Source of the DNA: Armatimonadota bacterium
GTDB lineage: Bacteria > Armatimonadota > Armatimonadia > Armatimonadales > Capsulimonadaceae
Length of the DNA stretch: 31,527 nt
Direction: 5' to 3'
Assembly (NCBI GenBank): GCA_031421335.1
Contig: JANOOM010000638.1
Coordinates: 1-31,527 of the forward strand
Below the pieces are notes generated by a model. It saw only the letters and a list, made by a program, of their open reading frames with translations, was not told the DNA's origin and did no database searches. Position 1 is the first letter of the stretch. Each line of letters starts with the position of its first letter. Of the stretch, positions 5,615 through 25,644 are shown in pieces. Made by a program: the position numbers and the translations under genes.

Positions 5615-5697
5615 GCCGAAGTGGCGGAATGGCAGACGCGGAGGTCTCAAAACCCATTGGGGGCAACCTCGTGGGCGTTCGAGACCCCCCTTCGGCA
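5615..5697 (+). tRNA. tRNA-Leu(CAA)-like gene, atypical or possibly pseudo
   Basis: Perfect acceptor stem GCCGAAG/CTTCGGC, discriminator A, Leu-type D arm, anticodon loop CTCAAAA, long variable arm GGGG-GCAA-CCTC, TTCGA T-loop. The anticodon stem (GAGGT/CCCAT) has two mismatches and the T stem has one. No encoded CCA. Confidence 0.8.
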
Positions 5698-9614: not shown

Positions 9615-10415
9615 TCACTTCTTGCGGGCGCTGGTCCGCGCCGGGCGGCGGCGGATGGCGAGCACGGCGACGTCGTCGTGGAACTCGCCCCGGCAGAAGG
9701 CGGAAACGCGGCGCAATAGGGTGGCGACCAGGCGGCCCAGTGCGAGTGGGGCAACGCGGGCGAACAGGGTCTTGAGGCGGTCTATCCCCAGCCACTCCAG
9801 CCGGGACTGCGGCGGGTGCGCGTCGGAAACGCCGTCGGTGTAGAGGAGGAGGGTACCGCCGGCCGGCACGTTCGCCTCGTACTGCTCGAAGCGGGCCATG
9901 GCGGGCGGGAAAGCGCCGACCGGCGGCCCGGTCCCGACCAGCTCCTCTACGGCCTCGGGGCCGCGCGTCCCCGCAGCGGCGATCAGGGCCGGCTCGTGGC
10001 CGCCACTGGCATAGGTCAGCCGTCCGGTCCCGGCTTCAAGCCTACCGACGAAGACGGTGCCGAAGCCCTCGAAATGGGGGTCCGGCTCGATCATAGCATT
10101 GACGGCGGACAGGGTCTCGGCGGGCGAAAGGCCAACCGTGATGCAGTCGGAGATCAAAGCGCGCATGTGCTCAGCCTGGAGTGCCTGCTCCGGCCCATGC
10201 CCCGCCACGTCGCCGATGACGATGGCGACATCGCCCGCTTCCCCTTCGAGCGCGAAGGCGCTGTAGAAATCGCCACCCAAGGGCGGTGTTGCGGGCTGAT
10301 CGGCGTGGGCGACGGTATATTCTCGGGAGAGTGTCTCCTGGTCCTGTCGCGGTGCGAGCATCTCTTCTGGTGCGGGCATCTCTTCTGGTGGTAGTTGCTC
10401 AATCATTTCAGTCAC
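9615..10415 (-). CDS. PP2C/SpoIIE-family (RsbU-like) protein phosphatase, no sensor domain
   Basis: Motifs GGDFY, IGDVAGHG, SGGHEP, LLYTDGV and DDVAVL. Confidence 0.9.
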   Translation of the reverse strand: MTEMIEQLPPEEMPAPEEMLAPRQDQETLSREYTVAHADQPATPPLGGDFYSAFALEGEAGDVAIVIGDVAGHGPEQALQAEHMRALISDCITVGLSPAETLSAVNAMIEPDPHFEGFGTVFVGRLEAGTGRLTYASGGHEPALIAAAGTRGPEAVEELVGTGPPVGAFPPAMARFEQYEANVPAGGTLLLYTDGVSDAHPPQSRLEWLGIDRLKTLFARVAPLALGRLVATLLRRVSAFCRGEFHDDVAVLAIRRRPARTSARKK

Positions 10416-10482
10416 AGTATAACACAGATTTGGGGGTTATGCTACGAGGCGAGGTGTTTTCAGCCAGCCTCCTGAAGATGAC

Positions 10483-10521
10483 CTCGTAAGCCTATCTCGT
10501 GAGCCTATCTCATAAGCCTAT
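10483..10521 (+). repeat. Three 13-bp tandem direct repeats in the divergent intergenic region
   Basis: CTCGTAAGCCTAT / CTCGTGAGCCTAT / CTCATAAGCCTAT. Confidence 0.85.
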
Positions 10522-10553
10522 AGAGAGTGTGCTAACACTCCGATAATTGTCAG

Positions 10554-13500
10554 GTGATGCTAAATACTCTACTTTCCCACCCCAGTTCATCCAAGGAATC
10601 TTCCGAGACGTCCCACCCACGCACTCTGGGATGGATGGGAACGACTGCGCTGGCAATGGGGGGCAGTAACCAAAGCCTGTTTATTATCGGTGCGCTGATT
10701 ATCGGTCAGGGCAATATCCATGGACAGGGCAGCGCCGCGATCCCTTTGCTGCTCTTAGGGCTGCTTTTGGGCTGGATGGCCGCGCCGGGCTGGATCGAAC
10801 TGGTCCTGATGTGGCCCAATCGCGTGGGAGGCATCGCGGCGACCTGTGCAGAGGCGTTTCGTCCTTACAGTCCCGTTCTCGCCAATCTTGCCGGGACATG
10901 CTATTGGTGGGGATGGATTCCGACCTGTGGGCTGACGGCACTGCTGTCCGCATCGGCCATTCATCAGTGGTACTTACCGCTTGTCCCAGTCCCCGCTCTC
11001 GCCTGTGGACTGGTCCTGCTATTCGCAGCCATCAACCTATGCGGCGTTCGATGGGTCACGCGGATGACGGTGCCTATTGCCGCCGGCTCGGCGGGCCTGG
11101 CCTTTTTGTCGGCGCTTGTTCCAGTGCTGACCGGCCATGTAGATTGGCATCAAGCAACGACGTTCCACCTGACCATTCCCTTCTCCGGGCTGTTCGGCAG
11201 CTTGACCAGCTTCATGGCGGGGCTTTACCTCGTCGGGTTTGCCGCGCCGGCTTTTGAGGCGGCTGCCTGCCATGTCGGGGAAACGATCGATCCGGTGAGG
11301 AATGTCCCACGCGCCATGTTCGCATCAGGCGCCATGGCAACGCTGTTCTTCGGCATTCTGCCTGTCATCTGGCTGGGAACACTCGGTTCCGAGGCTCTGG
11401 GCGGGGACCTCGCGCAGACTCTCGGGCCGACATTCGCGCCGCTCTTCGGGAGCGCTGCCAAGGCGGCTGCGATCTGGTTCATGATGCTGAATATGTTCCA
11501 CGGGACCATCCAGCCGCTCGCGGGAGCATCCCGAACGCTGGCGCAGTTGGCCGAAGATGGCTTGCTGCCACAGATCCTCGCCCGGCGTCTTCGCACGGAT
11601 GCGCCCTGGGTGGCGACGGCGCTGACAGCAGGCATGGCGATCGCTTTTCTGCTGGCGGGTGATCCGATCTGGCTGGTGGCAGCGGCGAACCTGACTTATC
11701 TTATCGGCATTTGTCTGCCTAACATTGCGGTTTGGCTGCTCCGGCGCGATGCGCCTGAGATACGCCGGCCCTGGCGCGCGCCGCGCGGGACAATCGAGCT
11801 GGGCGTGGCGGCTTCTCTGGTGTGGCTGGCGGCGACGATCCTCGGCTTTGAGCAGTTTGGGCTGCCGACCGTCTTGGCTGGACTGGCACTGGCATATTCC
11901 GGGTCCGTCTTCTATGCCGTCCGCTGCTGGCAGGACCGGCGCGGACGGAACATTCGGAAATATGCCTGGTCACTCCATACCAAATTAACGGGATCCATGC
12001 TCCTCGTGCTGACCCTAGACGGCGTCGGGTACTTTTTGGCGATCCGCAGCGTCCATACCGGACACCCGGAGTGGATCGCGGCCCTGGAAGACATCTTCGT
12101 CGCCGTCGCGCTGCTGACGATCTCGGTCGGGCTGATTTTGCCGGGGATGATCGGCCACGCGATGGAAGAAGTGGCCCAAGCCGCACGGCGGCTGGCAACG
12201 GGAACGCTCACCGACTTTTCGCGCGCCATGGCGGCGCTCGGGCGAGGCGATTTGGATGGGGCCTATGCACGGGTGGACATCACACCGGTTCGCGTACATT
12301 CACACGACGAAGTGGGAGAAATGGCGGACAGCTTCAATTTGATGCAGGGGGAGATCATCCAGGCCGCCCAGGGACTTTCGAACGCCCGCGAAGGCCTGCG
12401 GACTGCCAACACTGTTCTGGAAACACGGATGGTCGAGTTGCACGAAAGTCGAGAGCGTTTCGAGATCGCCGTTCAAGGCTCCCGCGATGGTTTATGGGAC
12501 TGGGACATACAACGCGGCACCGTCTATTTCTCGCCACGATGGAAAGCGATTCTCGGCTATGAAGACGATGAAATTGTCAACCAACCCGGCAACTGGATAA
12601 AGCACGTCTGTCCTGAAGACCGGCATCTGGTGCAAACAGCGGTGGATGACTATTTAAGCGGAATCCAGCCCAATTACGAGATAGAGTTCCGTATGCGGCA
12701 CAAAGACGGCGGAGTGCGCTGGGTGCTTGCGCGTGGTGTCGCCCTGCGCGACTCCGCAGGGCGGGCGTGCCGGATGGCAGGGTCACACACGGATATCACC
12801 GGGCGCAAGAGGGCGGAGCAGGAGCTTCTGGCGGCCAAATCCGCAGCAGAAGCGGCTTCGCAGGCTAAAAGCCTCTTCCTCGCCAACATGAGCCATGAGC
12901 TGCGAACCCCTATGAACGCGATCATCGGCTTCTCCGAGCTGCTGCAAGACCAGGTGTTCGGTGAGATGAATGCGCGTCAGACTAAGTATGTAGGCAACAT
13001 CTCGACCAGTGGCAAGCACTTGCTTCAGCTCATCAACGACATTCTGGACCTGTCCAAAGTGGAGTCAGGGCACATGGAACTGTTTGTACAGGCAGTGGAG
13101 GTATCCGAAGTCCTGCGGGGCGTCATTGCCGTCGCACAAGGGCTCGCTACTAAGAAACAGGTGGCGCTGACGCTGGCCGTCGAAGAGGAACTGCCGCCAC
13201 TGATGGCCGACCCGGCACGTCTCAAGCAGATTCTCTACAACCTGCTCTCAAACGCCGTCAAGTTCACCCCCCAAGGCGGGCAGGTGACAGTCGAAGCGCG
13301 CCTTGTCAATGGCTTGCTGGAAGTCTCCGTTTGTGATAGCGGGATCGGGCTGCGTCCCGAAGATCGGGAGCGTATCTTCGGTCAGTTCGAGCAAGTCGAC
13401 TCGACTTATACCCGTCTTCAGCAGGGTACAGGATTGGGGCTATCTTTGACCCGTCGGATGGTGGCGATGCACGGCGGAGAAATCTGGGTGGAAAGTGAGG

Positions 13501-13634
13501 GGCCGGGTTTGGGTTCGACCTTCCGGTTCACGCTGCCGCTCACGCTGCTGCTCACGCTGCCGCTCACGCTTCTAGAAGCATCATCAAACACGTTCCTGCC
13601 AGAAACACTCCCAGCACTGCGCTTGGCCGCGTAG
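10554..13634 (+). CDS. APC-superfamily amino-acid-permease domain fused to HAMP, PAS/PAC and histidine kinase domains
   Basis: About 450 aa with roughly 12 hydrophobic segments (TM1-like ALAMGGSN, GFAAPAFEAAAC, SRTLAQLAEDGLLP), then 2 more TMs. HAMP-like segment DEVGEMADSFNLM, PAS (GSRDGLWDWD...WIKHVCPEDR), H-box SHELRTPMN, N-box NLLSNAVKFT, G1 DSGIG, G2 GTGLGL. Confidence 0.88.
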   Translation: MMLNTLLSHPSSSKESSETSHPRTLGWMGTTALAMGGSNQSLFIIGALIIGQGNIHGQGSAAIPLLLLGLLLGWMAAPGWIELVLMWPNRVGGIAATCAEAFRPYSPVLANLAGTCYWWGWIPTCGLTALLSASAIHQWYLPLVPVPALACGLVLLFAAINLCGVRWVTRMTVPIAAGSAGLAFLSALVPVLTGHVDWHQATTFHLTIPFSGLFGSLTSFMAGLYLVGFAAPAFEAAACHVGETIDPVRNVPRAMFASGAMATLFFGILPVIWLGTLGSEALGGDLAQTLGPTFAPLFGSAAKAAAIWFMMLNMFHGTIQPLAGASRTLAQLAEDGLLPQILARRLRTDAPWVATALTAGMAIAFLLAGDPIWLVAAANLTYLIGICLPNIAVWLLRRDAPEIRRPWRAPRGTIELGVAASLVWLAATILGFEQFGLPTVLAGLALAYSGSVFYAVRCWQDRRGRNIRKYAWSLHTKLTGSMLLVLTLDGVGYFLAIRSVHTGHPEWIAALEDIFVAVALLTISVGLILPGMIGHAMEEVAQAARRLATGTLTDFSRAMAALGRGDLDGAYARVDITPVRVHSHDEVGEMADSFNLMQGEIIQAAQGLSNAREGLRTANTVLETRMVELHESRERFEIAVQGSRDGLWDWDIQRGTVYFSPRWKAILGYEDDEIVNQPGNWIKHVCPEDRHLVQTAVDDYLSGIQPNYEIEFRMRHKDGGVRWVLARGVALRDSAGRACRMAGSHTDITGRKRAEQELLAAKSAAEAASQAKSLFLANMSHELRTPMNAIIGFSELLQDQVFGEMNARQTKYVGNISTSGKHLLQLINDILDLSKVESGHMELFVQAVEVSEVLRGVIAVAQGLATKKQVALTLAVEEELPPLMADPARLKQILYNLLSNAVKFTPQGGQVTVEARLVNGLLEVSVCDSGIGLRPEDRERIFGQFEQVDSTYTRLQQGTGLGLSLTRRMVAMHGGEIWVESEGPGLGSTFRFTLPLTLLLTLPLTLLEASSNTFLPETLPALRLAA

Positions 13635-13640
13635 GAAGGT

Positions 13641-14036
13641 ATGACCCCGATGACAATGCACACGATCTTGATCGTTGAAGACAATCCATTTAACATGGAA
13701 CTAGCGACCGACGTTCTGGAACACGTCGGCTTTGCCGTCAGACAGGCCACGACAGGCGAGGCCGGAATTGCCGAAGCGCTCCGGCTACCGCCGGACCTTA
13801 TTCTGATGGATGTCGCTCTGCCCGGCATGGACGGTTTGACAGCGACATATCAACTCAAGCAAAACCCACAGACGCGCGCTATCCCAATCGTCTTCCTGAC
13901 GTCCCATGCCATGTACGGCGATAAGGACCGGGCGCTGGCGGCAGGTGGCGCACTTTATCTGACCAAGCCACTCAACACACGCACCCTCGCCGATACGCTC
14001 CGGGCAGTCCTGGCAGGTCAAGAGAGGAAGTCATGA
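13641..14036 (+). CDS. Single-domain response regulator (CheY/DivK-like)
   Basis: ILIVEDN, LILMDVALPGMDG (phosphoacceptor Asp), LTS, LTKP. Confidence 0.92.
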   Translation: MTPMTMHTILIVEDNPFNMELATDVLEHVGFAVRQATTGEAGIAEALRLPPDLILMDVALPGMDGLTATYQLKQNPQTRAIPIVFLTSHAMYGDKDRALAAGGALYLTKPLNTRTLADTLRAVLAGQERKS

Positions 14037-15163
14037 CTATCACCCAAAAGCGGATTCTGCTTGTTGACGATGAAGAATTCAACCGGGAACTGTTGGCTGC
14101 GCAGTTGGAATCGCTGGGGCATGTCTGGGAAGAAGCACAGAGCGGGGCGGAGGCCCTGGCGCTCCTGGACAAGCGCTTCGACCTCCTGCTGGTGGATGGG
14201 ATGATGCCGGAGATGGACGGGTTTGAACTGGTGTCACAGATCCGCGCCCAAGAGGACTACAAAGATGTGCCGATCATTATGGTCACTGCGCTCAACAGCC
14301 ATCAGGACCGGATGAAGGCGGTGGAAGCGGGTGCGAATGATTTCATCACCAAACCGGTTGACCGGCACGAGCTTCATGTGCGGACCGAATGCATGCTCAA
14401 GATGAAAGCAGCCCAAGACGCCGTCAAGAACCATCAGGCCGATTTGGAACGCATGATAGCAGCACGGACTTCCGACCTGCAAAATGCGATGAGCGAAGTC
14501 GTCCTGGGGCGCCAGCAGATCTACGAGGCGCAGCTTGACACGATCCATCGCCTGGCCCTGGCCGCCGAGCATCGTGACGAGCATACCGCCTCACATATTC
14601 ACCGCGTCAGCCACTACTGCGGCCTGTTAGCCTGGGCGCTGGACCTGCCGGCGGACGAAACGGAGCATATCCAGCAGGGCAGCATCATGCACGATGTCGG
14701 CAAGATAGGCATCCCCGACTCGATCCTGCTGAAAGAGGGACGGTTGGGCGATGCCGAACGCGGTGTCATGGAGCAGCACACGATCATCGGGGCGGACATT
14801 CTGTGCGGGTCTTCCTCGAAGCTGCTCCAGATGGGCGAGATCATCGCCCTGACGCACCATGAAAAGTGGGACGGCAGCGGTTACCCGCATGGGCTAAAGG
14901 GGGAAGCCATCCCCCTTCATGGCCGCATCTGCGCCGTCGCCGATGTCTTCGATGCCTTGACAAGCCGGCGTCCTTACAAGAAAGCCTACACGCGCAGTGA
15001 GTCGCGCGAGATTCTATGCCAGGGCTATGGGACCCACTTCGACCCCCGGATATTGGATCTCTTCTTGGCGAACTTCGAAGTCGTGGAGGTGATTCAGAAC
15101 CGATACGGTGACGGAGAGGGAGTCGAGGAAACAAGCGACTTGATGACAACCCTGCACTTGTAG
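14033..15163 (+). CDS. REC-HD-GYP response regulator (RpfG-like putative cyclic di-GMP phosphodiesterase)
   Basis: Receiver (LLVDD, LLVDGMMPEMDG, FITKP), then HDVGKIG, HHEKWDGSGYP and AVADVFDAL...RPYK. ATGA overlap with the upstream gene. Confidence 0.92.
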   Translation: MTITQKRILLVDDEEFNRELLAAQLESLGHVWEEAQSGAEALALLDKRFDLLLVDGMMPEMDGFELVSQIRAQEDYKDVPIIMVTALNSHQDRMKAVEAGANDFITKPVDRHELHVRTECMLKMKAAQDAVKNHQADLERMIAARTSDLQNAMSEVVLGRQQIYEAQLDTIHRLALAAEHRDEHTASHIHRVSHYCGLLAWALDLPADETEHIQQGSIMHDVGKIGIPDSILLKEGRLGDAERGVMEQHTIIGADILCGSSSKLLQMGEIIALTHHEKWDGSGYPHGLKGEAIPLHGRICAVADVFDALTSRRPYKKAYTRSESREILCQGYGTHFDPRILDLFLANFEVVEVIQNRYGDGEGVEETSDLMTTLHL

Positions 15164-15187: not shown

Positions 15188-15376
15188 CTACTCCCCCCAC
15201 CGCCGAACGGCCGGCGAAAACCTGAGTGTAAAAGCCTTCCAACTGCGCCGTGATTGCCGCCCATCCATATTTACGTTATAACACAGGTCATTGACGACCC
15301 CATAGAGGACGGCCACCAGAGTCACTAGGCCGGTCCAGAGGAGCGCCGCTCCGAGGCGCACCGAGGCTGTCTTCAC
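15188..15376 (-). CDS. Small membrane protein, possibly 3'-disrupted
   Basis: The GTG start overlaps the GT2 stop (GTGA). One TM helix. The 3' half runs into lower-GC sequence. Confidence 0.45.
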   Translation of the reverse strand: MKTASVRLGAALLWTGLVTLVAVLYGVVNDLCYNVNMDGRQSRRSWKAFTLRFSPAVRRWGE

Positions 15377-16368
15377 GGGCAGGACTGGCTCAACACCAGC
15401 CGCCGCATCTCGGAGCGCGCGCCGATCTCCGACTGTGCCCCTTCAAGGTAGCGAAGATTGTAGATGACGCTAAGGGCGGCGAAAGCCGGCCCGGCCCGGC
15501 GGGCACGGTAGGCTACCGTGGCGGCGCCGAGCAGCAGGGCGCGCAGGGGCGCACTCAGAGGCGGGGCGGCTAGGGCGAGGTCGGCGAGGCGGCGGGTGAG
15601 GACGTTCCGGGCGTGGTAGCCGTGGCGAACGGTCTGCCAGGGGGTGTCGCCCCGGCGGGCGCGGACGACATCGAGCTGCCCGTAAGCGTGGGGCACGGCC
15701 AGCCAGGACGCGAAGCGGCGGTGGGGGCGATGAACACCCCGCGCCTGAGGGTCATGGACGAAGCGGACGCCGCACTGCCTTTCCAGGCGGACGGCAAGTT
15801 CGACGTCTTCCTGGCGCGGGAAATGCTCGTCGAAGCCGCCGACGGCTTGCAGGTGTTCGCGGCGCACGGAGGCGTTGCCGGAATAAAAGTGGTGTGGGCC
15901 ACAGCCCTCCCACTCACCGGTGCGCCAGGCAGTATATTGCTTTTCCAGCATGGCGTGTTCCCAGGCGATCCAGGGTGGCTCTTGCCACTGCAAAGCGGGG
16001 TCGGGCAGCATCGGGCCGATGACGACTTCTTTGTCTGCGCCGGCATGGTGGGCGGCGTGGCGTATCAGGAAGTCCGGGACGGGTTCCACATCGTCGTCCA
16101 GGAAGACGACGACGGTCCCGCGCGCCTCCCGGATGCCCCGGTTGCGGGCGCGGGCCGGGCCGCCGTTTTCCTGCGTGATGGGGCGCAGCGCGAACGAGGC
16201 GGTTTGGGCGTACTCGGCCAGCAGGGCGCTGGTGCCATCTGTGCTGCCGTCGGAAACGACGATGGCCTCGAAAGAGTCCGGGGAACACGACTGGCGGGCC
16301 AGGCCGTCCAAGGTGACCCGGAGGCTGTCCTTGCGGTTGAAGGTGGGGATGACGACGCTCAAGAACAT
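15373..16368 (-). CDS. Glycosyltransferase family 2
   Basis: [33 protein letters not shown] (DXD), FYSGNAS, EDVEL. Start placed at the ATG at 16368. Confidence 0.9.
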
Positions 16369-16913
16369 GGCTTGTCCAGCACCCGGATGAGTCGCGCGGG
16401 GACGCCACCGACCAGCGTGTAGGGCGCGACATCTTTGGTCACGACGGCGCCCGCGGCGACGACGGCCCCGCGCCCGATGGTGACGCCCTTCAGGACAGTG
16501 ACACGGGCGGCGAGCCAGACGTCGTCCTCGATCACGACGGGCCGCGCCTCCGGGGCGACGGTATGGTCGTGGGTGGAATGGAAGTCGGTGTCCATGATCA
16601 GGGTGAGGTTGCCGATGGCGCAGCGCGCCCCGATCTTCACCGAGCACTGCGCGGCGATGGAGGCCCCAGCATTGATGTAGGTGCGCTCGCCGATCTCGAG
16701 GACGCCCCCCGGCATGGCGGCAAGCTCGATGGGCAGGGGCAACCCGCGCAGGCGGACACGCTCGCCCAGCCGGATGGTGCCACCGTTGTCAACGAAGAGG
16801 CTGCCCTGGACCCGCACCCAGCGCCCGACCGAGGTGCAGCGGCGCGTCTTCCAACGGCTCGACAGCAGCAGCATGGCCAGGGCCGGCAGTGAGCGTAGTG
16901 AGTGTCTGCTCAC
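16359..16913 (-). CDS. Left-handed beta-helix (hexapeptide) O-acyltransferase
   Basis: [43 protein letters not shown]. The GTG start overlaps the upstream TGA. Confidence 0.88.
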
Positions 16914-17485
16914 GCGGCCTCCAGGCGCCGGATGAAGCGGGCGGGGACGCCGCCGACCAGCGTGTGGGGGGGCACGTCCCGAGTGACGACGGCCCCCGCC
17001 GCCACGACGGCACCCGCGCCGACCGTCACGCCTGGCAGCAGGGTGACGTTTGCGGCGATCCACGCCCCGTCCCCGACCGTGATTGGGGCGACTTCGAGGG
17101 TCCCCGCCCGGAAGTCGGGGGCGCCCATGGCGTGGTCAGTGGTCACGAAGACGCTGTGGTGGCCGACCGAGACGCCGTCCCCAAGGGTGACGGGCGCGGC
17201 AGCGTCCACGAACAGCGGGCTGTTAAGGAAGCAGCGGGCACCGATGCGGAGGTTCCGGCGCGGGTCCCCGCCCAGCCCGAACTGGATCGGGCCGGCGATC
17301 AGCGTGCCCCGGCCAACCGTGATTCCCGCCGCCCGGTACAGGCGCGTCCGCAAGCGGGCGCCCGCACCGGGCGGCCAGGCGGACGTCAGGCGGTCCACCG
17401 CCCAGAGGCCCAGCGGGAGCGGCCCGCGCTCTTCGCGCACGACTCGGGCCAGTCTGCTCATTCCTTCCGTTTTCTCGCGGCTCAT
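16910..17485 (-). CDS. Left-handed beta-helix O-acyltransferase (second copy)
   Basis: [42 protein letters not shown]. Confidence 0.88.
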
Positions 17486-18468
17486 GGGCGCTCCAGCCCC
17501 CCCGCCGGCCGATAAAAGCGGGTCTGCCGGTCCACAGGCGTGCCGAGGCTGCGCCACAGTCCGGCCACCAGCCCCTGCAAGTAGCACAGATCGTTGTTCG
17601 GCCTCCGGCGCAGCAGCGCCTTGGCCGCAGCCCGCAGCCCCGCGCGGGCGATCCGGGCCAGCAGGACGCGGGCCGCCCAGCCGTCGCCGCAGCGGGCGTG
17701 TTTGGCATAGAAGGCGGCGTCGCCCGCCCCATAACTCCGCAGGACCGCGTGCCAGCGGTCTTCTGTGCGGAACGCCCGGTGGACGAGGACCACTGACGGC
17801 TCGGCCACTGTGGTCAGGCCCAGCCGCTGGGCGCGGTAGGAGAAGTCGAAGTCTTCCCCGCCGGGGAAGATGCCGCCGACGCCGAGGGCGGTATCGTAGA
17901 CGCCCACACGGTCCCAGGCGCTCCGCCGGAAGGCCATGTTCGCGCCCATGCCGAAGACCTCCCCGCGCGTCAAGATGCGGCGGGCGTCGAAGTAGAGGCA
18001 GGGAACTGAGACGTCCCGGCCGAGGTGCTCCGGCAGCATGTGGACCTGGCCGAAGATCAGGCCGAACTCCAGATTGTCGGCAAACACGCGGGCGATCGCG
18101 GCGACCCAGCCCGGCGGCGCCTCGCAGTCGTCGTCGGTGAAAGCGATGATCTCGCCCTGGGCCAGACCGACCGCGAGGTTGCGGGCCGCGCTCAGGCCGC
18201 GCGTCTCAGTCGGGACGTAGCGCAGGGCAGGGCAGCGGCCCTGGAGGGCGAGGACGATCGCGGCCGTCTCGCGGCCGTCGCTCTGGTCCACCACAATGAC
18301 CTCGAAGTCGGGGTAATCGTTCGCCAGCACCGTCGGCAGGGCATGGACGAGGTCCTGCGGCCGGTTGCGGGTGCAGATGAGCACGGAGACCTTGGGGGGG
18401 ACGCCCTGCGGGGAGTCCTCCGGCGCACTCCGGGGCGTGTTCACGGGCGTGTCTGCGGGCTCGTTCAT
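17482..18468 (-). CDS. Glycosyltransferase family 2
   Basis: VSVLICTRNRP, VVDQS, GLSAARN, AFTDDD, GANMAFRR, GGEDFD. The ATG at 18468 overlaps the flippase stop. Confidence 0.9.
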   Translation of the reverse strand: MNEPADTPVNTPRSAPEDSPQGVPPKVSVLICTRNRPQDLVHALPTVLANDYPDFEVIVVDQSDGRETAAIVLALQGRCPALRYVPTETRGLSAARNLAVGLAQGEIIAFTDDDCEAPPGWVAAIARVFADNLEFGLIFGQVHMLPEHLGRDVSVPCLYFDARRILTRGEVFGMGANMAFRRSAWDRVGVYDTALGVGGIFPGGEDFDFSYRAQRLGLTTVAEPSVVLVHRAFRTEDRWHAVLRSYGAGDAAFYAKHARCGDGWAARVLLARIARAGLRAAAKALLRRRPNNDLCYLQGLVAGLWRSLGTPVDRQTRFYRPAGGLERP

Positions 18469-19937
18469 GAGACTCCCATCCGGCCCTTCACCATCTGCCG
18501 CACCATCTGGACGTCGGCAGGGTGCAGGCAGCGCAGCAGCCAGCATAGGGCGGCGTACACTAACAGGCCGGGGACCAGCAGCAGCAGGCCCGCCCGGTCG
18601 TGGACGAAGTAGAACAAGCCCACCAGGGGCAGGGCGGCGGCGGCGGCGCGCGCCAGGGTCATGAAGCTGCCGCCGCCGACGAAGCCGGGCGGCAGGGCGC
18701 GGATGTAGGCGGTGACCATGTACGCCTCGATCAGCACGTCGCCCAGGACCGCGCCAACGGCCCCATTGTGGAACGCGCGCTGGGTCAGGAAGATCAAAGT
18801 GCCGGTGACCGGCACGCAGATCAAGGCGGAAACGGCGGTGATACGGCTCAAGGCGGCCTGCCGGTCGCTGGCGATCAGGGCGGTCCCGGCGGCCTGGGAG
18901 ACGAACCACAGAATGATAGCCGCCCCGAGGATCATCAGGACGGGCGCGGCGGGGGCGAAGCCGGCCCCACTGCCGGTGACCAGGGCGATGATACGTCCGG
19001 GGGCCATGACCAGTACGGCGGCGAAGGGCACGGCGCAGATGACGACGAAGTTGAACATGCGCCGGGCGGCCGCCTCGAAGGCGGGCCGATCCTCGCGGAA
19101 GACGCGCGAGAGGGCGGGCAGCATGGCCCCGGTCAGGGCCATGGGGAGGAACAAGGTCGTCGCGCCGAGCCGCTTGGCCAGCCCGTACCAGCCGATGGCC
19201 TCGAAGCTGCTCAGTTTGGACATCAGGAGGGCATCGCAGTTGCCGTAAACGGCGACGAAGACGGCGGTCGTCAGGAACGGCAGGCCCTGCCGGGCGAGCG
19301 CGCTGACCGTGGCGCGGGACGGACGGCGCGCGGACTTCAAGTAAGGCCCGAAGGCGCTCAGATTGATGAGCAGGGCGACGGCCCCGCTGACGCCGCCGGC
19401 ACCGGCGATCATCCATAGAGGGGCGTGGGCGCGGATGAGGCAGACCACGAGAACGGCCAGAACGGCCTTGTCGGCGAGGGTGGCGGCGTTCTGGCGCGGG
19501 ATTTCCTGGAGGCCACGCAGGGCCGAGCCGAGGGCATCGGAGAGTATGGCGACGAGCATGGCGGCAAGCGAAACGGCGACGAGGAGGCGCACGGACGGGC
19601 CGTAGCCCATCGCGCGGGCGACGGCCCACCCGGCGACGATGGAGAGCAGCCCGATCGGCAGGCGCAGGGACAGGGCGGCCAGGGTCAGCTCGGCGGTGCG
19701 GTCCGGGTCGCGGGCGATGTCGCGCGTCAGGACCGTCGAGGTGCCAAGCCCCATGGCGATGGCGAACACGCCGGCGAAGGACCCGGCGAATGTCAGCAGG
19801 CCCAGGCCGTGCGCCCCGACATAGCGGGTCAAGTAGACGGTCAAGACGAAGGTCACGCCCCACGACAGGAGCTGCGAGCCGAGTGTCGCCAGAACGTTGC
19901 GGGCCACCAGACCCGAACGGGTCATCTTAGGATTCAT
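18465..19937 (-). CDS. Wzx-type polysaccharide flippase
   Basis: Many TM segments, RNVLATL, LGTSTVLTRDIAR, IGWYGLAKRL, AMLPALSR. The ATG at 19937 overlaps the upstream stop. Confidence 0.88.
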   Translation of the reverse strand: MNPKMTRSGLVARNVLATLGSQLLSWGVTFVLTVYLTRYVGAHGLGLLTFAGSFAGVFAIAMGLGTSTVLTRDIARDPDRTAELTLAALSLRLPIGLLSIVAGWAVARAMGYGPSVRLLVAVSLAAMLVAILSDALGSALRGLQEIPRQNAATLADKAVLAVLVVCLIRAHAPLWMIAGAGGVSGAVALLINLSAFGPYLKSARRPSRATVSALARQGLPFLTTAVFVAVYGNCDALLMSKLSSFEAIGWYGLAKRLGATTLFLPMALTGAMLPALSRVFREDRPAFEAAARRMFNFVVICAVPFAAVLVMAPGRIIALVTGSGAGFAPAAPVLMILGAAIILWFVSQAAGTALIASDRQAALSRITAVSALICVPVTGTLIFLTQRAFHNGAVGAVLGDVLIEAYMVTAYIRALPPGFVGGGSFMTLARAAAAALPLVGLFYFVHDRAGLLLLVPGLLVYAALCWLLRCLHPADVQMVRQMVKGRMGVS

Positions 19938-21565
19938 CGCGCCGCCTCCTTGCGGGTCATCGCCGGGGCGGGGGCCAGGGTGGGTAGGGCGGCGGCCATG
20001 CCAGCCCAAAGCCCCGCAAACAGCATGTCGCGGAAATTCGAAAACTGCAAGTCAAGCAGGCCGAAGATCTGGAGAGTGCCGATGATCAGCAGGGCGGTCA
20101 GAGCGACGGCCTTGACGTCGGGGGCGGCGGCCGGGTCGCGGACGGTGCGGGCGGCGCAGACGATGATGGCGGCGACCATCATCCAGAAGGCCAGGAATCC
20201 GAAGGAGCCGACGCGCATCCAGACCCACAAGACCTGGTTGTGGGTCATGATGTCCCACCACTCATAGTCTTTGCTGATGTCGGCGATGGGGACGGCGTGG
20301 AACATGTGCTTGCCGTAACCAAAGCCTTGCAGGGGTGCGGACCGGATGGTCGCCATCAGGTCGGCGTTTTCGGCATCCCGGTAGGCGTTGGAGGAGGCGT
20401 CGCGCGGGTCCGGCTGGAACTGGGACTTTATGGCGCGGGCGGGCTGGGCGAGCAGGTTGTCGCTGTTCTGGAAAGCGACGTAGTAGCCGGCGAAGAGGAC
20501 GAAGCCGGCCACCGACAGCGCGGAGATCAGGCGCCGCCGCGCGGGCAGGGCCTGGTAGGCGGCCAGAACGAGCAATGGGATGATGACGATGAAGGCCGCC
20601 GTGCCGGCCCGGCGGTTGCAGGCGAGGCTACCGAGCAGGACGAACGGCAAGAGGGCAATCATGGCCCAGCGCAGGCGGGTGTGCGCGCCGAAGACGGACA
20701 GGGCGAGCAGCAGGGCGGCGAAGCAGTCGAAGAAGAAGACCTCTTCGTGCGCGTCAATGCCCTGGTCGGGCAGCGGCAGCCCATGCAGGGTGACATAGCG
20801 CCGGAGGGTCAGCAGGACGCCTTTCAGCGCGGCGCAGGCGGCGACCGTCCACAGGATAGCCGAAAGCTGACGCCGGTCCCGGACCATGTTGACGGCCATC
20901 AAATAGGCCAGCCCGAAGTAGAACTGGGAGCGCACTTCCTGGAGCGAGACCTTGAAGTCGCCGCCGGTCAGCATGCCGTTGACCCAGCCCACCAGGACGA
21001 ACGCCATGTAGATCCCGATGGGCAGCAGCAGCGGGCCGCCGCGCAGGGAGGTGTTCTGAGTGTAAACGGCGCGCAGGCAAGAGCAGATGCCCGCCGTCAG
21101 GATGAAGATCTCGAAGAGGTTCAGCGGGACGCCCTTGAAGTCGGCATGGGCGTAGATCTGGAAGATGGTGTTGACGTTCCAGAAGAAGGGGATGCGGTCG
21201 GTCAAGGCGTCCGCGTACTGGCGCCCGTCCAGCCCCGAGACCGGCCCCGTCTCGAACAGGCACACGGCGACGAGGGTCCCGTAGAGCACGAAGCGCGGGA
21301 AGCGCCACAGCAGGACCGGGGTCAGGACGCCCGCCAGCAGCGCGACGGGCAGCAGGATGTTGTCCAGGCCGAAGGCGACGAAGGAGAAGGCGACCAGGCC
21401 AGCCAGCAGTCCGCCGCCGAGCAGGAACCAGCGCGCACGCGCCTGGGCCTGGCCGGCGTATTGCTCGGCCGTGGGCATGGCGCTGAAGACGTGCGCGTCC
21501 TCGGCCCCGTCAGGCGGGGCGTCGGGGGCGGTGAGTTTTTCGAGTTTTTGCAGCAGAGCGTTCAT
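19934..21565 (-). CDS. Wzy/O-antigen-ligase-like polytopic membrane protein
   Basis: Multi-TM protein with NRRAG, a periplasmic loop (SSNAYRDAEN...PLQGFGYG) and THNQVLWVWMRVG. Confidence 0.82.
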   Translation of the reverse strand: MNALLQKLEKLTAPDAPPDGAEDAHVFSAMPTAEQYAGQAQARARWFLLGGGLLAGLVAFSFVAFGLDNILLPVALLAGVLTPVLLWRFPRFVLYGTLVAVCLFETGPVSGLDGRQYADALTDRIPFFWNVNTIFQIYAHADFKGVPLNLFEIFILTAGICSCLRAVYTQNTSLRGGPLLLPIGIYMAFVLVGWVNGMLTGGDFKVSLQEVRSQFYFGLAYLMAVNMVRDRRQLSAILWTVAACAALKGVLLTLRRYVTLHGLPLPDQGIDAHEEVFFFDCFAALLLALSVFGAHTRLRWAMIALLPFVLLGSLACNRRAGTAAFIVIIPLLVLAAYQALPARRRLISALSVAGFVLFAGYYVAFQNSDNLLAQPARAIKSQFQPDPRDASSNAYRDAENADLMATIRSAPLQGFGYGKHMFHAVPIADISKDYEWWDIMTHNQVLWVWMRVGSFGFLAFWMMVAAIIVCAARTVRDPAAAPDVKAVALTALLIIGTLQIFGLLDLQFSNFRDMLFAGLWAGMAAALPTLAPAPAMTRKEAAR

Positions 21566-21583
21566 TTTTAAGAGCGTGAGAAC

Positions 21584-21718
21584 GGGCGGTTGAAACCGCG
21601 CCAACAAGGGCACAAAACCTGCCTCCGCAGGTTAAGAGCAGAAGTCTAAGACTCCAATCTGGAGTCTGAGTCCACGAAGGTGGACTTTGTGAGGTTATTG
21701 GCGCGGCTTCAACCGCCC
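21584..21718. repeat. 135-bp composite palindromic (REPIN/MITE-like) element
   Basis: 21-bp terminal inverted repeats matching 20/21 (GGGCGGTTGAAACCGCGCCAA). Internal hairpins lie at 21616-21633, 21649-21667 and 21669-21686. Confidence 0.85.
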
Positions 21719-23955
21719 GCTTTTAGCGGTACGCGCAGCAGGGTCACGGACTGTGGCGGCAGAGTCAGGACGGCCCGCAGCGGGGCCGGCGGGAAGACGA
21801 CGATCTGTTTAGGATTATCGGCGTCGCAGCGCCACATCTTCACCGTCCCGGCGGGCGCAATGCCGTGGATGACAAGCGGGGCCGTGATCGTGGCCTTGGA
21901 CATCTTGTTGACGAGCATCAGCGTCAGCTCGCCGGTGCGGCTGTCGGTGGCAGCGTAGGCGGACAGCCGGCCTTGGTCGGCGCTCGATGCCGTGCAGGCA
22001 ATGTCGCCGAAGCCGTTCCCGCGCCCGTCGGCATTGCGGTACAGCTTGAAGGCGAGGTAGCCCGGCGAGTCCTTGTCGGGGTAGGCCCAGTAGTCGGCCA
22101 GATAGAGATTTTCGCGCCCAAAGATGCCCAAAGCGTCGGCGATGGCTAGCCCGCCGTTCATATGGGAGTCGTTGCCGAAGTTCCATTCGGTCAGCCCGAG
22201 CCGTGTGCCGGGGTAGCCCGTGCCGATCCAGCCCTTGAGGCGCGGGATCAGATTTACCGGGGCGGCGATCCAAGACTCATCTTGGTAGGTGGGGTCCCAC
22301 AGACTGCGCGTGGAGCGCAGGCGCAGGGCCTGCGTCGCCTTATCGTTCTGGCCGCCGAAGACGCCGGCACCCTGGGGGTAATAGTGAACGTCCAGCACGT
22401 CCAAACTCCGCCGGCCCGCCTGAGCGTCGTGGGCATGTACCCGCTTGAGGAACCAGAGCAGAAACGGGTCGCCGCCGTGGTGGTTCTGGTCGGTGTGGGT
22501 GTGGAAGTTGTCGGTGCCCCGGTCGAGCGCGGAGTAATTGTACCCGGTCCAGCCCCAGGAGACGGGGCCGGTGACTAAGGCGGTCGGGTCCACGGCCTTG
22601 ACGGCGGGGGCGTATTCCAGGAAATTCCGCAGCACGTCGTCGTAGCCCATGCGGGCCGGGTGGACGTCGGTGTGGGTCGAGTCCCACAGATCCGGCTCGT
22701 TGTCCATGGCGAAAAACTGCACGCCGCCGTGCGCGCCGTCGCCGAAGGTCGTCTTCAGGTGGTGGACCCACTCGTCCTGGTACACGACGCCCCCGGCCAG
22801 TGTCGGGGTGTCGGTGAACGGTGCGCCCTTGCGGGCGGCCGACCGGACGCTGGTCCGGGCGCGGTTGGCGGCGGGGTCGTAGCCCGCGACCGCGCCGTCC
22901 ACGCCGTTCAGTCCCTCCCCGCCTCCGTTCGGGACGTTGGCGGAAGCGTTGGCATTGTCGGCGTCGCGGGCGACCCACCCGATGGTCGGCACGGTCAGCA
23001 GGGTGGCCGCCCCATGGGCGCGGTCGGCCCGGACGAAAGCGTCGGCGGCGGACGAGGGGCCGGGTGGCGGGGTCGCGTTTGTGGCACTCCGGTTGCGGTA
23101 GCCCCAGTCGTGGGCGGCGTTCTCGGCGTTGCCCTGCACCCAGTTGTAGCGCGTCTTGTCGTTGCCGCCCCAGCGGTTCAAGGGCAGGCGCAGGTCGGAG
23201 ACATAGTCCTCGGGGGCCATCGCCATGCCGTAGATGAACGGCGAGATCGGGTGCCGCCCAGCCCCGGCGTTGACCGTGACGGCGACCGTGGCAGCCGTCG
23301 GCGCGGACGGCAGGGAGGGGTCAGGCAGGAAAGAAACGTCGTCCACGGCCAGGGCGGGTTGGGCACTCTCTTCCGGCTGGAAGATGACCCCACTGACCGG
23401 CGGCCCACCGCGCGGAACGCCTAGGGCGGCCAGCGGGATGCGGAGGAGGCGCCAGCCGGGCCGGCCCGCCGGGTCGGGGTGCGAGTAGGGGGCGAGGGAC
23501 GTGTAAGGCAGGAACTTGCCGCCGCCGTCCACGAGGCAGACGCGCGGGGCCGTGTCGCCGGAGACGAACGCTTCCAGGACGCCGTATCCGCCCGTGTCAA
23601 AAGGGTCGTGGTGGAGGAACAAGCCCCGGTTGCCGCCGGGCTGGAGGAGGATGGCACTCCTGCCGGAATGGACCTGGCTCTGGTGGCTGAGGTCGCGCGT
23701 CCCCCAGGACCAGTCCTGCCAGCCGTCGCCGAGTGCGTCGCCGTAGACGACCATCGGATCGTCCGCCCGCTCGGCGGGCAGGGTGGCGGCCGAGGCCGGC
23801 TCGCCCTTAACGGCCCGGTAAAGGCTTCTGGCGAGGTGATGCAGGTGTCCGTGTCCGTCTTTCGCACGGCGGGCGACACTCGCCCCTAGCAGGGCGGCGG
23901 AAAGCGCGGCGGTTAAGACGAGCAGCACGATGGAGGGCTTGACGTGCAGTTTCAA
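21709..23955 (-). CDS. GH44-family endo-beta-glycanase with N-terminal signal/anchor and CBM-like domain
   Basis: RWGGNDKTRYNW, DNEPDLW (acid/base Glu), LDVHYYP, LTEWNFG (nucleophile Glu), ALGIFGR. A probable TTG start at 23955 precedes a hydrophobic segment. Confidence 0.82.
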   Translation of the reverse strand: MKLHVKPSIVLLVLTAALSAALLGASVARRAKDGHGHLHHLARSLYRAVKGEPASAATLPAERADDPMVVYGDALGDGWQDWSWGTRDLSHQSQVHSGRSAILLQPGGNRGLFLHHDPFDTGGYGVLEAFVSGDTAPRVCLVDGGGKFLPYTSLAPYSHPDPAGRPGWRLLRIPLAALGVPRGGPPVSGVIFQPEESAQPALAVDDVSFLPDPSLPSAPTAATVAVTVNAGAGRHPISPFIYGMAMAPEDYVSDLRLPLNRWGGNDKTRYNWVQGNAENAAHDWGYRNRSATNATPPPGPSSAADAFVRADRAHGAATLLTVPTIGWVARDADNANASANVPNGGGEGLNGVDGAVAGYDPAANRARTSVRSAARKGAPFTDTPTLAGGVVYQDEWVHHLKTTFGDGAHGGVQFFAMDNEPDLWDSTHTDVHPARMGYDDVLRNFLEYAPAVKAVDPTALVTGPVSWGWTGYNYSALDRGTDNFHTHTDQNHHGGDPFLLWFLKRVHAHDAQAGRRSLDVLDVHYYPQGAGVFGGQNDKATQALRLRSTRSLWDPTYQDESWIAAPVNLIPRLKGWIGTGYPGTRLGLTEWNFGNDSHMNGGLAIADALGIFGRENLYLADYWAYPDKDSPGYLAFKLYRNADGRGNGFGDIACTASSADQGRLSAYAATDSRTGELTLMLVNKMSKATITAPLVIHGIAPAGTVKMWRCDADNPKQIVVFPPAPLRAVLTLPPQSVTLLRVPLKAGG

Positions 23956-24031
23956 TTGGGGGTAGCCTTTGTGAAAGGGCCTTGCGCGCCGGACGGCGCG
24001 GGGCGTAGTGCAGGGATGATACCTCACCCCC

Positions 24032-24047
24032 TTGCATAAGTCATGCC
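24032..24047 (-). promoter_or_regulatory. Putative sigma54 (-24/-12) promoter of the polysaccharide operon
   Basis: Minus strand TGGCATGACTTATGCA has GG-N10-GC spacing and matches TGGCAC-N5-TTGC closely. It lies about 77 nt before the GH44 start. Confidence 0.6.
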
Positions 24048-24438
24048 AAAGCCCCGTGCCTGCTAGAACGCGACAGGAATGCCGACAGTCCCGCCCCCGC
24101 TGCCCCAGCGCCCACCGCCCCGGCGCCCCCTGGGCGGGCGTGTGCGGACGTGGACCTCGGAAGCGCTCTTGCCGTTCGCGCTGACGACGCGTGCCCGGAA
24201 GATGCGGCCCGCCTAGGGCGCCGCCCGGATAGTCTCCCACGCCACCTCCGCGCGCCGCCCCGGCGGCTGCGGAGCGCGGCATCTGGCGGACGATGGAAAA
24301 CACGGGAAGCGCCATAGCGAGGAGACAGACGAGGCCCAGTGCCCATTTCTTCCTCTTGTCGGTGCCTCCACGTTCTTGACGGCATCATGGCGGAGGACCA
24401 TGAAAAGCGCATGAAGACGGCGCTTCCTTTCTCGCGCC

Positions 24439-25644
24439 TCAATCGCGGTATTCGCGGCGGTCGTCCAGGCGGGGCAGACCCGCGCCATCCCCGCCGCCCG
24501 CATGGGCAGCGATCAGCTCCTCATAGACCGATATCATGCGCCCGCCGACGCGTTCGGGCGTGCGCGCCGACGCCCCGCGCTTGGCTTCTTCCGCCAGGCG
24601 GCGCCGGGCGTCAGGATCGGACAGCAGGGCGAGCGCCTGCGCGGCCATGGCCCGCGCGTCGTCAGCGACCAGGAATCCATCCACGCCGTCGCGGACCGAC
24701 TCGGGCGCCCCGCCCACGTTGACCACGACGCAGGGCAGACCGGCGGCCAGGGCTTCGCCGACAGCCAGTCCCTGCGTCTCGGTCTTGGAAGGGAACAAGA
24801 ACAGGTCGGAAGCCTGATAAAGCGGGTCCAGCTTGGTGCGGCCCAGGAACCCGGCGAAGCGGGTCCGCCGGTGGACGCCCAGGGCGCGGGCGCGCGCCTC
24901 CAATGTCCCCCGGCTCTTGCCGCTGCCGGCCAGGATCAGGTAAGTGTCGTTGGTCTTCTCGGTGACGAGGGCGAAGGCGCGTAGCAGCAGGTCCAGGTTC
25001 TTTTCAGGGGCCAGGCGGCCGACGTAAAGGAGGAGGTGGGCGTCGGGCGGCAGGCCGAACTCCTGCTTCGTCTCGGGCGGGCGCTGGAGCAGATAGGGCG
25101 GCGCGGGGATGGCCGTCGGGACGACGGAAACGGGCGTCTGCACCCCGTACCCTTCCAGCACGCGCTGGGTGAGCCTGGAGGGGGCCAGGATCCGGTCGCA
25201 GGTGTTGTAGAATCTGCGCATCCAGCGGACCAGGACCCAGCGGGTGACCCCGACCGTGGGCAGGGGCAGATAGTGGGCGTACTCCGTGTAGAGGGTGTGG
25301 TTGGTGGCGACGTGCGGCAGGCCCAGGGACCGGGCGACCCGGCGGGCGAGCAGGCCCAGGAAGAACGGCGAGTGGGAATGGACGATGTCGAGCTTCAGAG
25401 CCGGGATGGCGCGGGCGATGCGCGGCGAGAAGATGATTGGCAAAACATAGTCCGGCTCGACGACGGCATTGACGGAGGGGTAGCGGAAGACGCCGGGGCG
25501 CTCATCCCGGTAGCGCGGGAAGCGGGAAGTAAAAACGAATGCCTCGTGCCCGGCCTGCTCCAAGTGGGCGATGAGGGTCTGGACGGACGTGGAAACGCCG
25601 TTGATGAGGGGCGGATAGCTTTCGGTGAAGATGCCGACGCGCAT
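24439..25644 (-). CDS. Glycosyltransferase family 4, resembling diacylglycerol/lipid glycosyltransferases
   Basis: MRVGIFTESYPPLINGVSTSV, HSHSPF, THTLY-like NHTLY, GRLAPEKN, ETQGLAVGEALAAGLP. Confidence 0.9.
   Translation of the reverse strand: MRVGIFTESYPPLINGVSTSVQTLIAHLEQAGHEAFVFTSRFPRYRDERPGVFRYPSVNAVVEPDYVLPIIFSPRIARAIPALKLDIVHSHSPFFLGLLARRVARSLGLPHVATNHTLYTEYAHYLPLPTVGVTRWVLVRWMRRFYNTCDRILAPSRLTQRVLEGYGVQTPVSVVPTAIPAPPYLLQRPPETKQEFGLPPDAHLLLYVGRLAPEKNLDLLLRAFALVTEKTNDTYLILAGSGKSRGTLEARARALGVHRRTRFAGFLGRTKLDPLYQASDLFLFPSKTETQGLAVGEALAAGLPCVVVNVGGAPESVRDGVDGFLVADDARAMAAQALALLSDPDARRRLAEEAKRGASARTPERVGGRMISVYEELIAAHAGGGDGAGLPRLDDRREYRD

Follow-up and report, generated by a model that had tools for sequence, protein, structure and literature searches.

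A stretch of 31,527 nt (~67% G+C; hereafter the window) of contig JANOOM010000638.1, derived from a member of the Capsulimonadaceae (Armatimonadota), carries three co-oriented open reading frames (ORFs) that encode a membrane histidine kinase, a stand-alone receiver (REC) protein and a REC-HD-GYP response regulator. Judged by its sequence, this trio is a genuine conserved cassette, in which a predicted phosphodiesterase output of the RpfG type is combined with an unusual input, a membrane module with the fold of amino-acid/polyamine/organocation (APC) permeases. We consider the chances somewhat better than even that the three proteins form a branched two-component system whose output is hydrolysis of cyclic di-GMP (c-di-GMP) and not transcription.

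The genes are compactly arranged. The stop codon of the kinase gene (TAG, 13632-13634) is followed by a gap of 6 nt and the ATG of the receiver gene at 13641, and the end of the latter overlaps the start of the REC-HD-GYP gene in an ATGA sequence (14033-14036); both junctions were read directly from the sequence. A Shine-Dalgarno-like GGAAGG is located just 1-2 nt ahead of the ATG at 13641 and, given this spacing, translation of the receiver may alternatively start at Met4 (13650). No DNA-binding domain was detected with Pfam in any of the three proteins. A preliminary description of this locus had presented it as a tight operon-like group of a kinase, a single receiver and a REC-HD-GYP protein, lacking a transcription-factor output, and this is borne out by the ORFs, the two junctions and the Pfam domains.

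The third protein, from which the enzymatic output is predicted, contains a Response_reg domain (residues 8-117, 104.8 bits in Pfam) with the receiver pocket D12/D13, D55, T85 and K107, followed by an HD_5 domain (178-340, 116.3 bits) that is also recognized by the HD model. The motifs H220-D221, H249, H275-H276-E277, G283-Y284-P285 and D304 are present in its HD-GYP domain (approximately residues 170-345), which in the PDB matches PmGH (4mcw), a c-di-GMP phosphodiesterase of solved structure, over ~200 residues with an E-value of 3.9e-53. Further matches are PA4781 (E 3.1e-36) and the cGAMP-specific V-cGAP3 (5z7c, E 3.6e-34). With HD-GYP entries set aside, the best PDB match of the receiver part is the REC domain of PleD. 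REC-HD-GYP proteins make up what is called the RpfG family, and several of its members are phosphorylation-dependent c-di-GMP phosphodiesterases (Galperin and Chou, 10.1101/2021.11.05.467447). The receiver pocket, together with the metal ligands and the HD, HHE and GYP motifs, places the protein in this family, and the predicted output, c-di-GMP hydrolysis, which had been proposed earlier, is supported by the intact HD-GYP motifs and the PmGH match, as well as by the gene order and fusions of relatives. A more specific assignment, to the NosR-family c-di-GMP phosphodiesterase regulators (NCBIfam NF053512), was rejected at 172.1 bits against a cut-off of 400.

Seven of the eight metal ligands of PmGH are kept in the regulator. 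The position of E185, a ligand of the third metal, is occupied by His184, and among orthologues by H, E or Y. HD-GYP enzymes lacking the acidic third-metal residue constitute a binuclear class, whose members tend not to proceed beyond pGpG (10.1101/2021.11.05.467447). Given His184, the metal centre of the regulator may be binuclear and, because of the same replacement, the product of hydrolysis is probably pGpG.

Related loci were found by tblastn combined with home-built domain models, of which the HPt model is weak, so the HPt counts given here are minimums. Besides the window, genes for the kinase, the lone receiver and the REC-HD-GYP protein occur in the same order in G018 (OZ244065.1, a Capsulimonadaceae metagenome-assembled genome (MAG) of the same genus, with protein identities of 86, 79 and 81%, respectively), L031 (a 4.5-kb contig), G022, L121 (a metagenome contig), G028 (a genome of another genus) and a Methylotenera MAG. 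Since the arrangement recurs at seven loci in at least five different genomes, it is not due to chance; conservation of the trio had been proposed in the preliminary description as a check of its model. At three more loci (G036, G033/L109 and L120) the kinase is paired with a REC-GGDEF-HD-GYP protein. In total, the kinase adjoins a REC-(GGDEF-)HD-GYP gene at 10 loci, and the home-made, weak model detected no HPt encoded at any of them. Fusions of APC, GGDEF and HD-GYP parts in one protein were identified in G002, G007 and G035 (the architecture was checked on P0047). In a tally of 82 sensor genes, taken from the window together with the 80 top-ranking genome loci, 35 proved to be fused or adjacent to GGDEF, EAL or HD-GYP enzymes, 31 encoded hybrid kinases without a neighbouring partner, and seven had REC-HK-REC downstream. 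HK-REC-HPt in a single protein also occurs in some members of the family. Gene order and domain fusions thus give two independent lines of evidence that the sensor acts on c-di-GMP turnover, and the predicted link from the kinase to the HD-GYP enzyme is well supported.

Some of these loci have peculiarities of their own. In G036 (C35, L021/L045), one REC-GGDEF-HD-GYP gene comes after two tandem APC-kinase paralogues with fused receivers (P0014 and P0020). The orthologous kinase of G022 (L026, G022:C1:2084416-2087371) is divided into two overlapping frames, covering residues 4-751 and 741-1001, suggestive of a frameshift or of an error in the assembly. The L031 contig (JAYTHH010000244.1) was binned as Rhodospirillales and its trio shares 83-86% protein identity with that of the window; the contig is probably mis-binned.

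The Pfam domains of the kinase run from AA_permease_2 (PF13520, with a cut-off of 27 bits) through HAMP and PAS_3 to HisKA (residues 771-839, 77.4 bits) and HATPase_c (886-997, 104.8 bits). As in other HisKA-type kinases, the H box SHELRTP with His781, the N box NAVKF, and the G1 (DSGIG) and G2 (GTGLGL) motifs are intact. The chain stops ~30 residues past HATPase_c, with no fused receiver and no fused HPt. It is not a hybrid kinase of the RpfC type, as the receiver is a separate gene and there is no HPt at the locus. Identity of the kinase core with DivJ was rejected (204.9 vs 1000 bits in NCBIfam). The C-terminal tail contains an LPLTLL repeat. At position 13528, 24 nt are missing from an ice metatranscriptome contig, equivalent to one copy of an 8-residue Leu/Pro/Thr repeat; according to this contig the tail following the ATPase domain is variable in natural populations.

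The APC fold extends to approximately residue 455 and so comprises ~12 transmembrane (TM) helices; a crude hydropathy scan of the protein fits 12+2 helices. A PDB search with the single sequence of the APC part gave no match, and only the profile search succeeded, matching SLC7 and bacterial APC structures (xCT, y+LAT, LAT1, GkApcT, BasC and ApcT) with E-values of 4e-13 to 2e-5. The nearest named family, trimethylamine N-oxide (TMAO) permease (NCBIfam NF053774), was rejected with a score of 128.7 bits vs a cut-off of 690, covering residues 150-459 only. The first 560 residues of the kinase are 59-88% identical to relatives, and the mean column identity of the sensor module across phyla is 72%. 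Relatives of the sensor are found in Armatimonadota, Chloroflexota, Verrucomicrobiota, Pseudomonadota, Acidobacteriota, Planctomycetota, Cyanobacteriota, Actinomycetota, Myxococcota and Dormibacterota; the sensor is present in 518 species genomes, and among 1.84 billion representatives only 1041 proteins match it at E <= 0.001. Nearly all full-length matches exceed 785 aa, which means that signalling domains are attached, and stand-alone ones are few; this favours a putative role of the APC module as a receptor rather than a transporter. The "nutrient" input named in the preliminary description is a putative one, deduced from the permease fold. A literature search for APC-fused kinases, or for APC together with HD-GYP, returned nothing relevant on the sensor family, and prokaryotic transceptors were treated as nearly unknown in a paper of 2024 (PMC11109136).

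The product of the second gene consists of one Response_reg domain (residues 9-120 of 131 aa, Pfam), and its phospho-acceptor pocket is complete (E13/D14, D57, T87 and K109). It shares 56% identity with the receiver fused to a G036 kinase (P0014), vs 34% with that of the HD-GYP protein encoded next to it. A tree computed for 65 receivers places the lone receivers of the seven trio loci with the fused receivers of the family's hybrid kinases (support 92/92), and the receivers of the HD-GYP partners constitute a separate group. Because of this identity and tree grouping, the lone receiver is best regarded as the receiver of a hybrid kinase in detached form, equivalent to the one that relatives have fused to their kinase. 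Its best NCBIfam matches are the receiver domains of BarA, TorS, RcsC and ArcB. In the PDB the REC domain of PleD ranked first overall and DivK (1m5t) was the best stand-alone receiver (E 4.5e-21), so that the term "DivK-like", applied to this protein earlier, is fair at the sequence level, the full pocket included. Several roles would be compatible with these features: the receiver may be a competing acceptor (sink), exert DivK-like feedback on the kinase, or serve as the first step of a relay.

In the mechanism that we propose, a small solute would bind to, or pass through, the APC-fold membrane module of the kinase. The signal would then be conveyed via the two extra TM helices, HAMP and the cytoplasmic PAS domain to HisKA/HATPase, causing autophosphorylation on His781. 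Transfer of the phosphoryl group to Asp55 of the REC-HD-GYP protein would switch on the phosphodiesterase and c-di-GMP would fall; the kinase would most likely be an activator of the c-di-GMP-destroying enzyme. The lone receiver (Asp57) would most likely act on the kinase, as a competing acceptor or by DivK-style feedback, and so tune the flux to the HD-GYP regulator. Gene structure, motifs, the conserved pairing of kinase and HD-GYP protein, the fusions and the kinship of the lone receiver with fused receivers are read from sequence, whereas we infer which ligand is sensed, in which direction regulation runs, by which routes the phosphoryl group travels and what the enzyme produces.

Several points weigh against the proposed mechanism or parts of it. 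As a clue to the ligand of the sensor, the nearest named family (TMAO permease) falls far short of its cut-off, and the searchable literature contained no biochemistry on any member of the sensor family. The third metal of the HD-GYP domain could still be ligated by His184. Contigs from RNA libraries may contain DNA and are no proof of transcription or of a single transcript. The three kinase/REC-GGDEF-HD-GYP loci have no lone receiver, making this protein dispensable for the core link between kinase and HD-GYP enzyme. In hybrid kinases the fused receiver usually hands the phosphoryl group to an HPt and, with an orphan HPt gene present on another contig, direct transfer from the kinase to the regulator is not assured.

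This HPt may be part of a multi-step phosphorelay, a rival explanation that we regard as unlikely, if worth serious attention. The phosphoryl group would pass from the kinase to the lone receiver (D1), on to the unlinked HPt and finally to the REC-HD-GYP protein (D2), following the RpfC-to-RpfG logic in split genes. Such a route would fit the grouping of the lone receiver with fused receivers of the family's hybrid kinases, its NCBIfam matches and the HK-REC-HPt proteins of some relatives. The HPt gene of the own genome (L029:1179-1550, G000:C271) encodes 123 aa and is located beside lepA and an FKBP isomerase gene, apart from two-component genes; its product is the sole stand-alone HPt detected in this genome. 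However, HPt was lacking at all 10 trio and duo loci, within the reach of the weak model, and direct transfer from the kinase is implied at the three duo loci, as these have no intermediate receiver. Direct phosphorylation of the REC-HD-GYP protein, with the lone receiver acting on the kinase, is the reading that we retain.

Matches to GGDEF (~19), HD_5 (~16), EAL (2) and PilZ (3) indicate that a c-di-GMP network exists in the own genome (G000). With ~16 HD_5 vs 2 EAL matches, degradation of c-di-GMP in this lineage appears to proceed mainly via HD-GYP enzymes. Many of the HD-GYP domains of this genome are encoded in the same ORF as GGDEF. Near-identical DNA is present in glacier, ice and sediment metagenomes. 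Two ice metatranscriptome libraries contain 82-84% of the sampled locus words, and one 3.6-kb metatranscriptome contig covers both gene junctions of the trio. Word depth in the RNA libraries is uneven (in X19, 31-59 for the kinase, 95-148 for the glycan genes and 198-364 for GH31), whereas that of a DNA run is nearly flat. These data are consistent with transcription of the trio at a low level.

Features of the trio and its surroundings, with coordinates in the window
Feature	Position	Strand	Basis or remark
Upstream intergenic region	10416..10553	+	Between the kinase gene and a divergent PP2C/SpoIIE gene
Sensor histidine kinase, 1026 aa	10554..13634	+	ORF, Pfam, hydropathy, motifs
APC permease-fold sensor module, residues 25-429	10626..11840	+	PF13520, 108.5 bits
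Two extra TM helices (~residues 482-532), then HAMP (548-601)	11997..12356	+	Crude hydropathy scan; Pfam
Cytoplasmic PAS_3, residues 657-744	12522..12785	+	Pfam, 90.8 bits
Kinase core, HisKA + HATPase_c	12864..13544	+	Pfam, motifs; His781 = 12894-12896
Single-domain receiver, 131 aa	13641..14036	+	Pfam, motifs, tree, PDB matches; D57 = 13809-13811
RpfG-type response regulator, 376 aa	14033..15163	+	Pfam, motifs; D55 = 14195-14197
Wzx/Wzy-type glycan cluster, convergent	15373..25644	-	Domain matches of ORFs

Across a 210-bp spacer, the trio meets a minus-strand cluster encoding GT2, two hexapeptide acyltransferases, another GT2, Wzx, a Wzy_C-like protein, GH44 and GT4. The Wzx protein (18465-20009) matches PF01943 with 72.6 bits, the cut-off being 28.2, and the Wzy_C-like protein (19934-21613) scores 30.2 bits, just below the cut-off of 31.7. 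Among the ORFs scanned there was no priming phosphoglycosyl transferase, no chain-length regulator and no export protein. The label "Wzx/Wzy cluster" is a fair one for this predicted glycan locus, although a priming transferase was not found, and the convergence of the trio on it, noted in the preliminary description, is confirmed by the orientation of the genes; the two are not co-transcribed.

The same description had gone further and aimed the output of the trio at the polysaccharide operon. Specific control of this operon through c-di-GMP, as a biofilm/dispersal switch, is in our opinion quite improbable. Exopolysaccharides are commonly under c-di-GMP control, the cluster is close to the trio and this arrangement is retained in G018, GT4 and GT2 genes lie 2-5 kb downstream of the G028 trio, and aggregates are important on the glacier ice and sediment that the host inhabits. 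However, the neighbourhood, whose conservation was to serve as a check, is kept only in G018, the closest relative, which is so closely related that inherited synteny is expected. Four of the five other contexts (G022, L121, L120 and Methylotenera) have unrelated neighbours and no polysaccharide genes, the G028 locus being the fifth. The orientation is convergent, the composition of the trio fits a later insertion, no PilZ or GGDEF domain was found in the window, the cluster included (PilZ matches are on other contigs), and Rfam detected no c-di-GMP riboswitch in the window. The adjacency is most likely incidental. A polysaccharide link is not supported, though it is not disproved, and the claim should not be carried forward absent new evidence.

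We rate as very unlikely that the lone receiver constitutes a second output branch and binds a target other than the kinase, in the manner of EpsW, which activates a priming glycosyltransferase in Myxococcus. Other single-domain receivers are known to act on protein targets (PMC12802240, PMC5964349), and the EpsW model NF041866 matches the lone receiver weakly. Yet the 55.6 bits of this match are far from the cut-off of 200, for which reason EpsW identity was rejected, the neighbouring cluster yielded no priming phosphoglycosyl transferase, and in G036 the receiver is fused to the kinase, which speaks for a role close to the kinase. Finally, the V-cGAP3 match and the missing acidic residue at the E185 position might suggest that the HD-GYP domain hydrolyses another cyclic dinucleotide (e.g. 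3'3'-cGAMP) or is a non-catalytic binding protein, but this is extremely doubtful, given that PmGH is the closer match, PA4781 is comparable, the catalytic motifs are all kept, and relatives of the sensor are fused to c-di-GMP-specific GGDEF and EAL domains.

The base composition of the trio differs from that of its surroundings: its G+C content is 0.59, and 0.65-0.75 at third codon positions (GC3), vs 0.67 and 0.80-0.90, respectively, for the neighbours. The G018 locus has the same composition dip. Within the genus, just five of 23 further genomes encode a sensor of this kind, and both its locus and its output differ among them. Given the atypical composition and patchy distribution, the trio was probably acquired as a cassette and came to lie next to the cluster. 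Synteny anchored on GH31 is broken outside G018 in nine other genomes of the genus and says nothing either way on insertion. The low-GC cassette is bracketed by a 10-bp exact direct repeat, TATAACACAG (10418-10427 and 15277-15286). A shared 10-mer was obtained in just 282 of 20000 shuffles, so that the repeat is improbable by chance, but it is not present in the syntenic G018 locus and is not taken to be an insertion scar. In G018, just downstream of the HD-GYP gene (L020:13486-13599), there is a fragment of 38 residues with 74% identity to the upstream SpoIIE-type phosphatase, which may have been left there by a rearrangement at the border of the cassette.

Three tandem 13-nt repeats, CTCRTRAGCCTAT, at 10483-10521 (33-71 nt upstream of the kinase start) may represent a candidate regulator-binding site. 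In G018 another short tandem repeat is found at this position. A promoter scan gave no sigma-70 consensus match upstream of the kinase. Four terminator-like sites were predicted vs 4.0 in the shuffled background, all inside genes, and a hairpin past the HD-GYP stop codon has no T-run and a fold z-score of -0.85. The divergent PP2C/SpoIIE gene contains, at its 5' end, an 18-nt unit twice in tandem (10351-10386), giving a short peptide repeat. A SpoIIE/PP2C-type gene with 33% identity to that of the window is also located upstream and divergent of the APC-kinase in G033, a Capsulimonas genome (L022:9519-10130), maybe by coincidence. Elsewhere in the window (5615-5697), tRNA-Leu(CAA) was called by both ARAGORN and Rfam (32.4 bits, cut-off 29).

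Taken together, the results allow a broader reading, which we offer as tentative and rather unlikely in its entirety. The APC module, which is 67-88% identical over at least ten phyla, is hardly ever found as a permease on its own and is wired repeatedly to c-di-GMP enzymes, would be a dedicated receptor for one particular small solute of wide relevance, the split trio would be an "exploded" version with separate proteins, and in the glacier-ice host the solute could set aggregates or polysaccharide. To our knowledge, the input signals of most c-di-GMP enzymes are not known. Here, a transporter-shaped sensor, the pocket of which is exceptionally well conserved, is tied to c-di-GMP turnover by gene order, fusions and a defined enzymatic output. 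Identification of its ligand would explain a recurrent input to bacterial lifestyle switching, in a family spanning many phyla, and would add an APC-type case to the few studied prokaryotic receptors with a transporter fold, which are of the Amt and SLC5 types. The split arrangement provides soluble, separately expressible partners for phosphotransfer work.

Transporter folds at the input of signalling proteins are represented by Ks-Amt5, an Amt-histidine kinase (PMC5764959), Sd-Amt1, an Amt-HAMP-GGDEF protein (PMC11152129), and CbrA, cited as an SLC5-STAC-PAS-kinase in PMC11109136. The APC-fold kinase resembles these proteins in that a complete transporter fold is the input of a kinase or a c-di-GMP enzyme, and, as in Sd-Amt1, HAMP couples the membrane module to the output. 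It differs from them in superfamily, being APC/SLC7-like and not of the Amt or SLC5 type.

On the output side, the regulator shares with PmGH of Persephonella marina (4mcw; PMC4159591) the HD, H, HHE, GYP and D motifs over ~200 residues. The input of PmGH is a GAF domain and its iron centre, which includes E185, is trinuclear, whereas the trio regulator has a REC input and His184. In the DivJ/PleC-DivK-PleD system of Caulobacter, one kinase serves a single-domain receiver and a receiver-fused c-di-GMP enzyme, a wiring that is predicted from sequence for the trio. In contrast to that system, the output of the trio is an HD-GYP phosphodiesterase and not a cyclase, there is no cell-cycle context, and the kinase is below the DivJ cut-off. 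The RpfC/RpfG system of Xanthomonas, which senses the diffusible signal factor (DSF; PMC3749722), likewise comprises a membrane kinase that controls a REC-HD-GYP protein degrading c-di-GMP and not binding DNA, and in both systems an extra receiver is placed between kinase and regulator. However, RpfC unites a multi-TM DSF sensor with HisKA-HATPase-REC-HPt in one hybrid protein, whereas the trio has a separate receiver gene, no HPt at the locus, and an input composed of an APC fold, HAMP and PAS.

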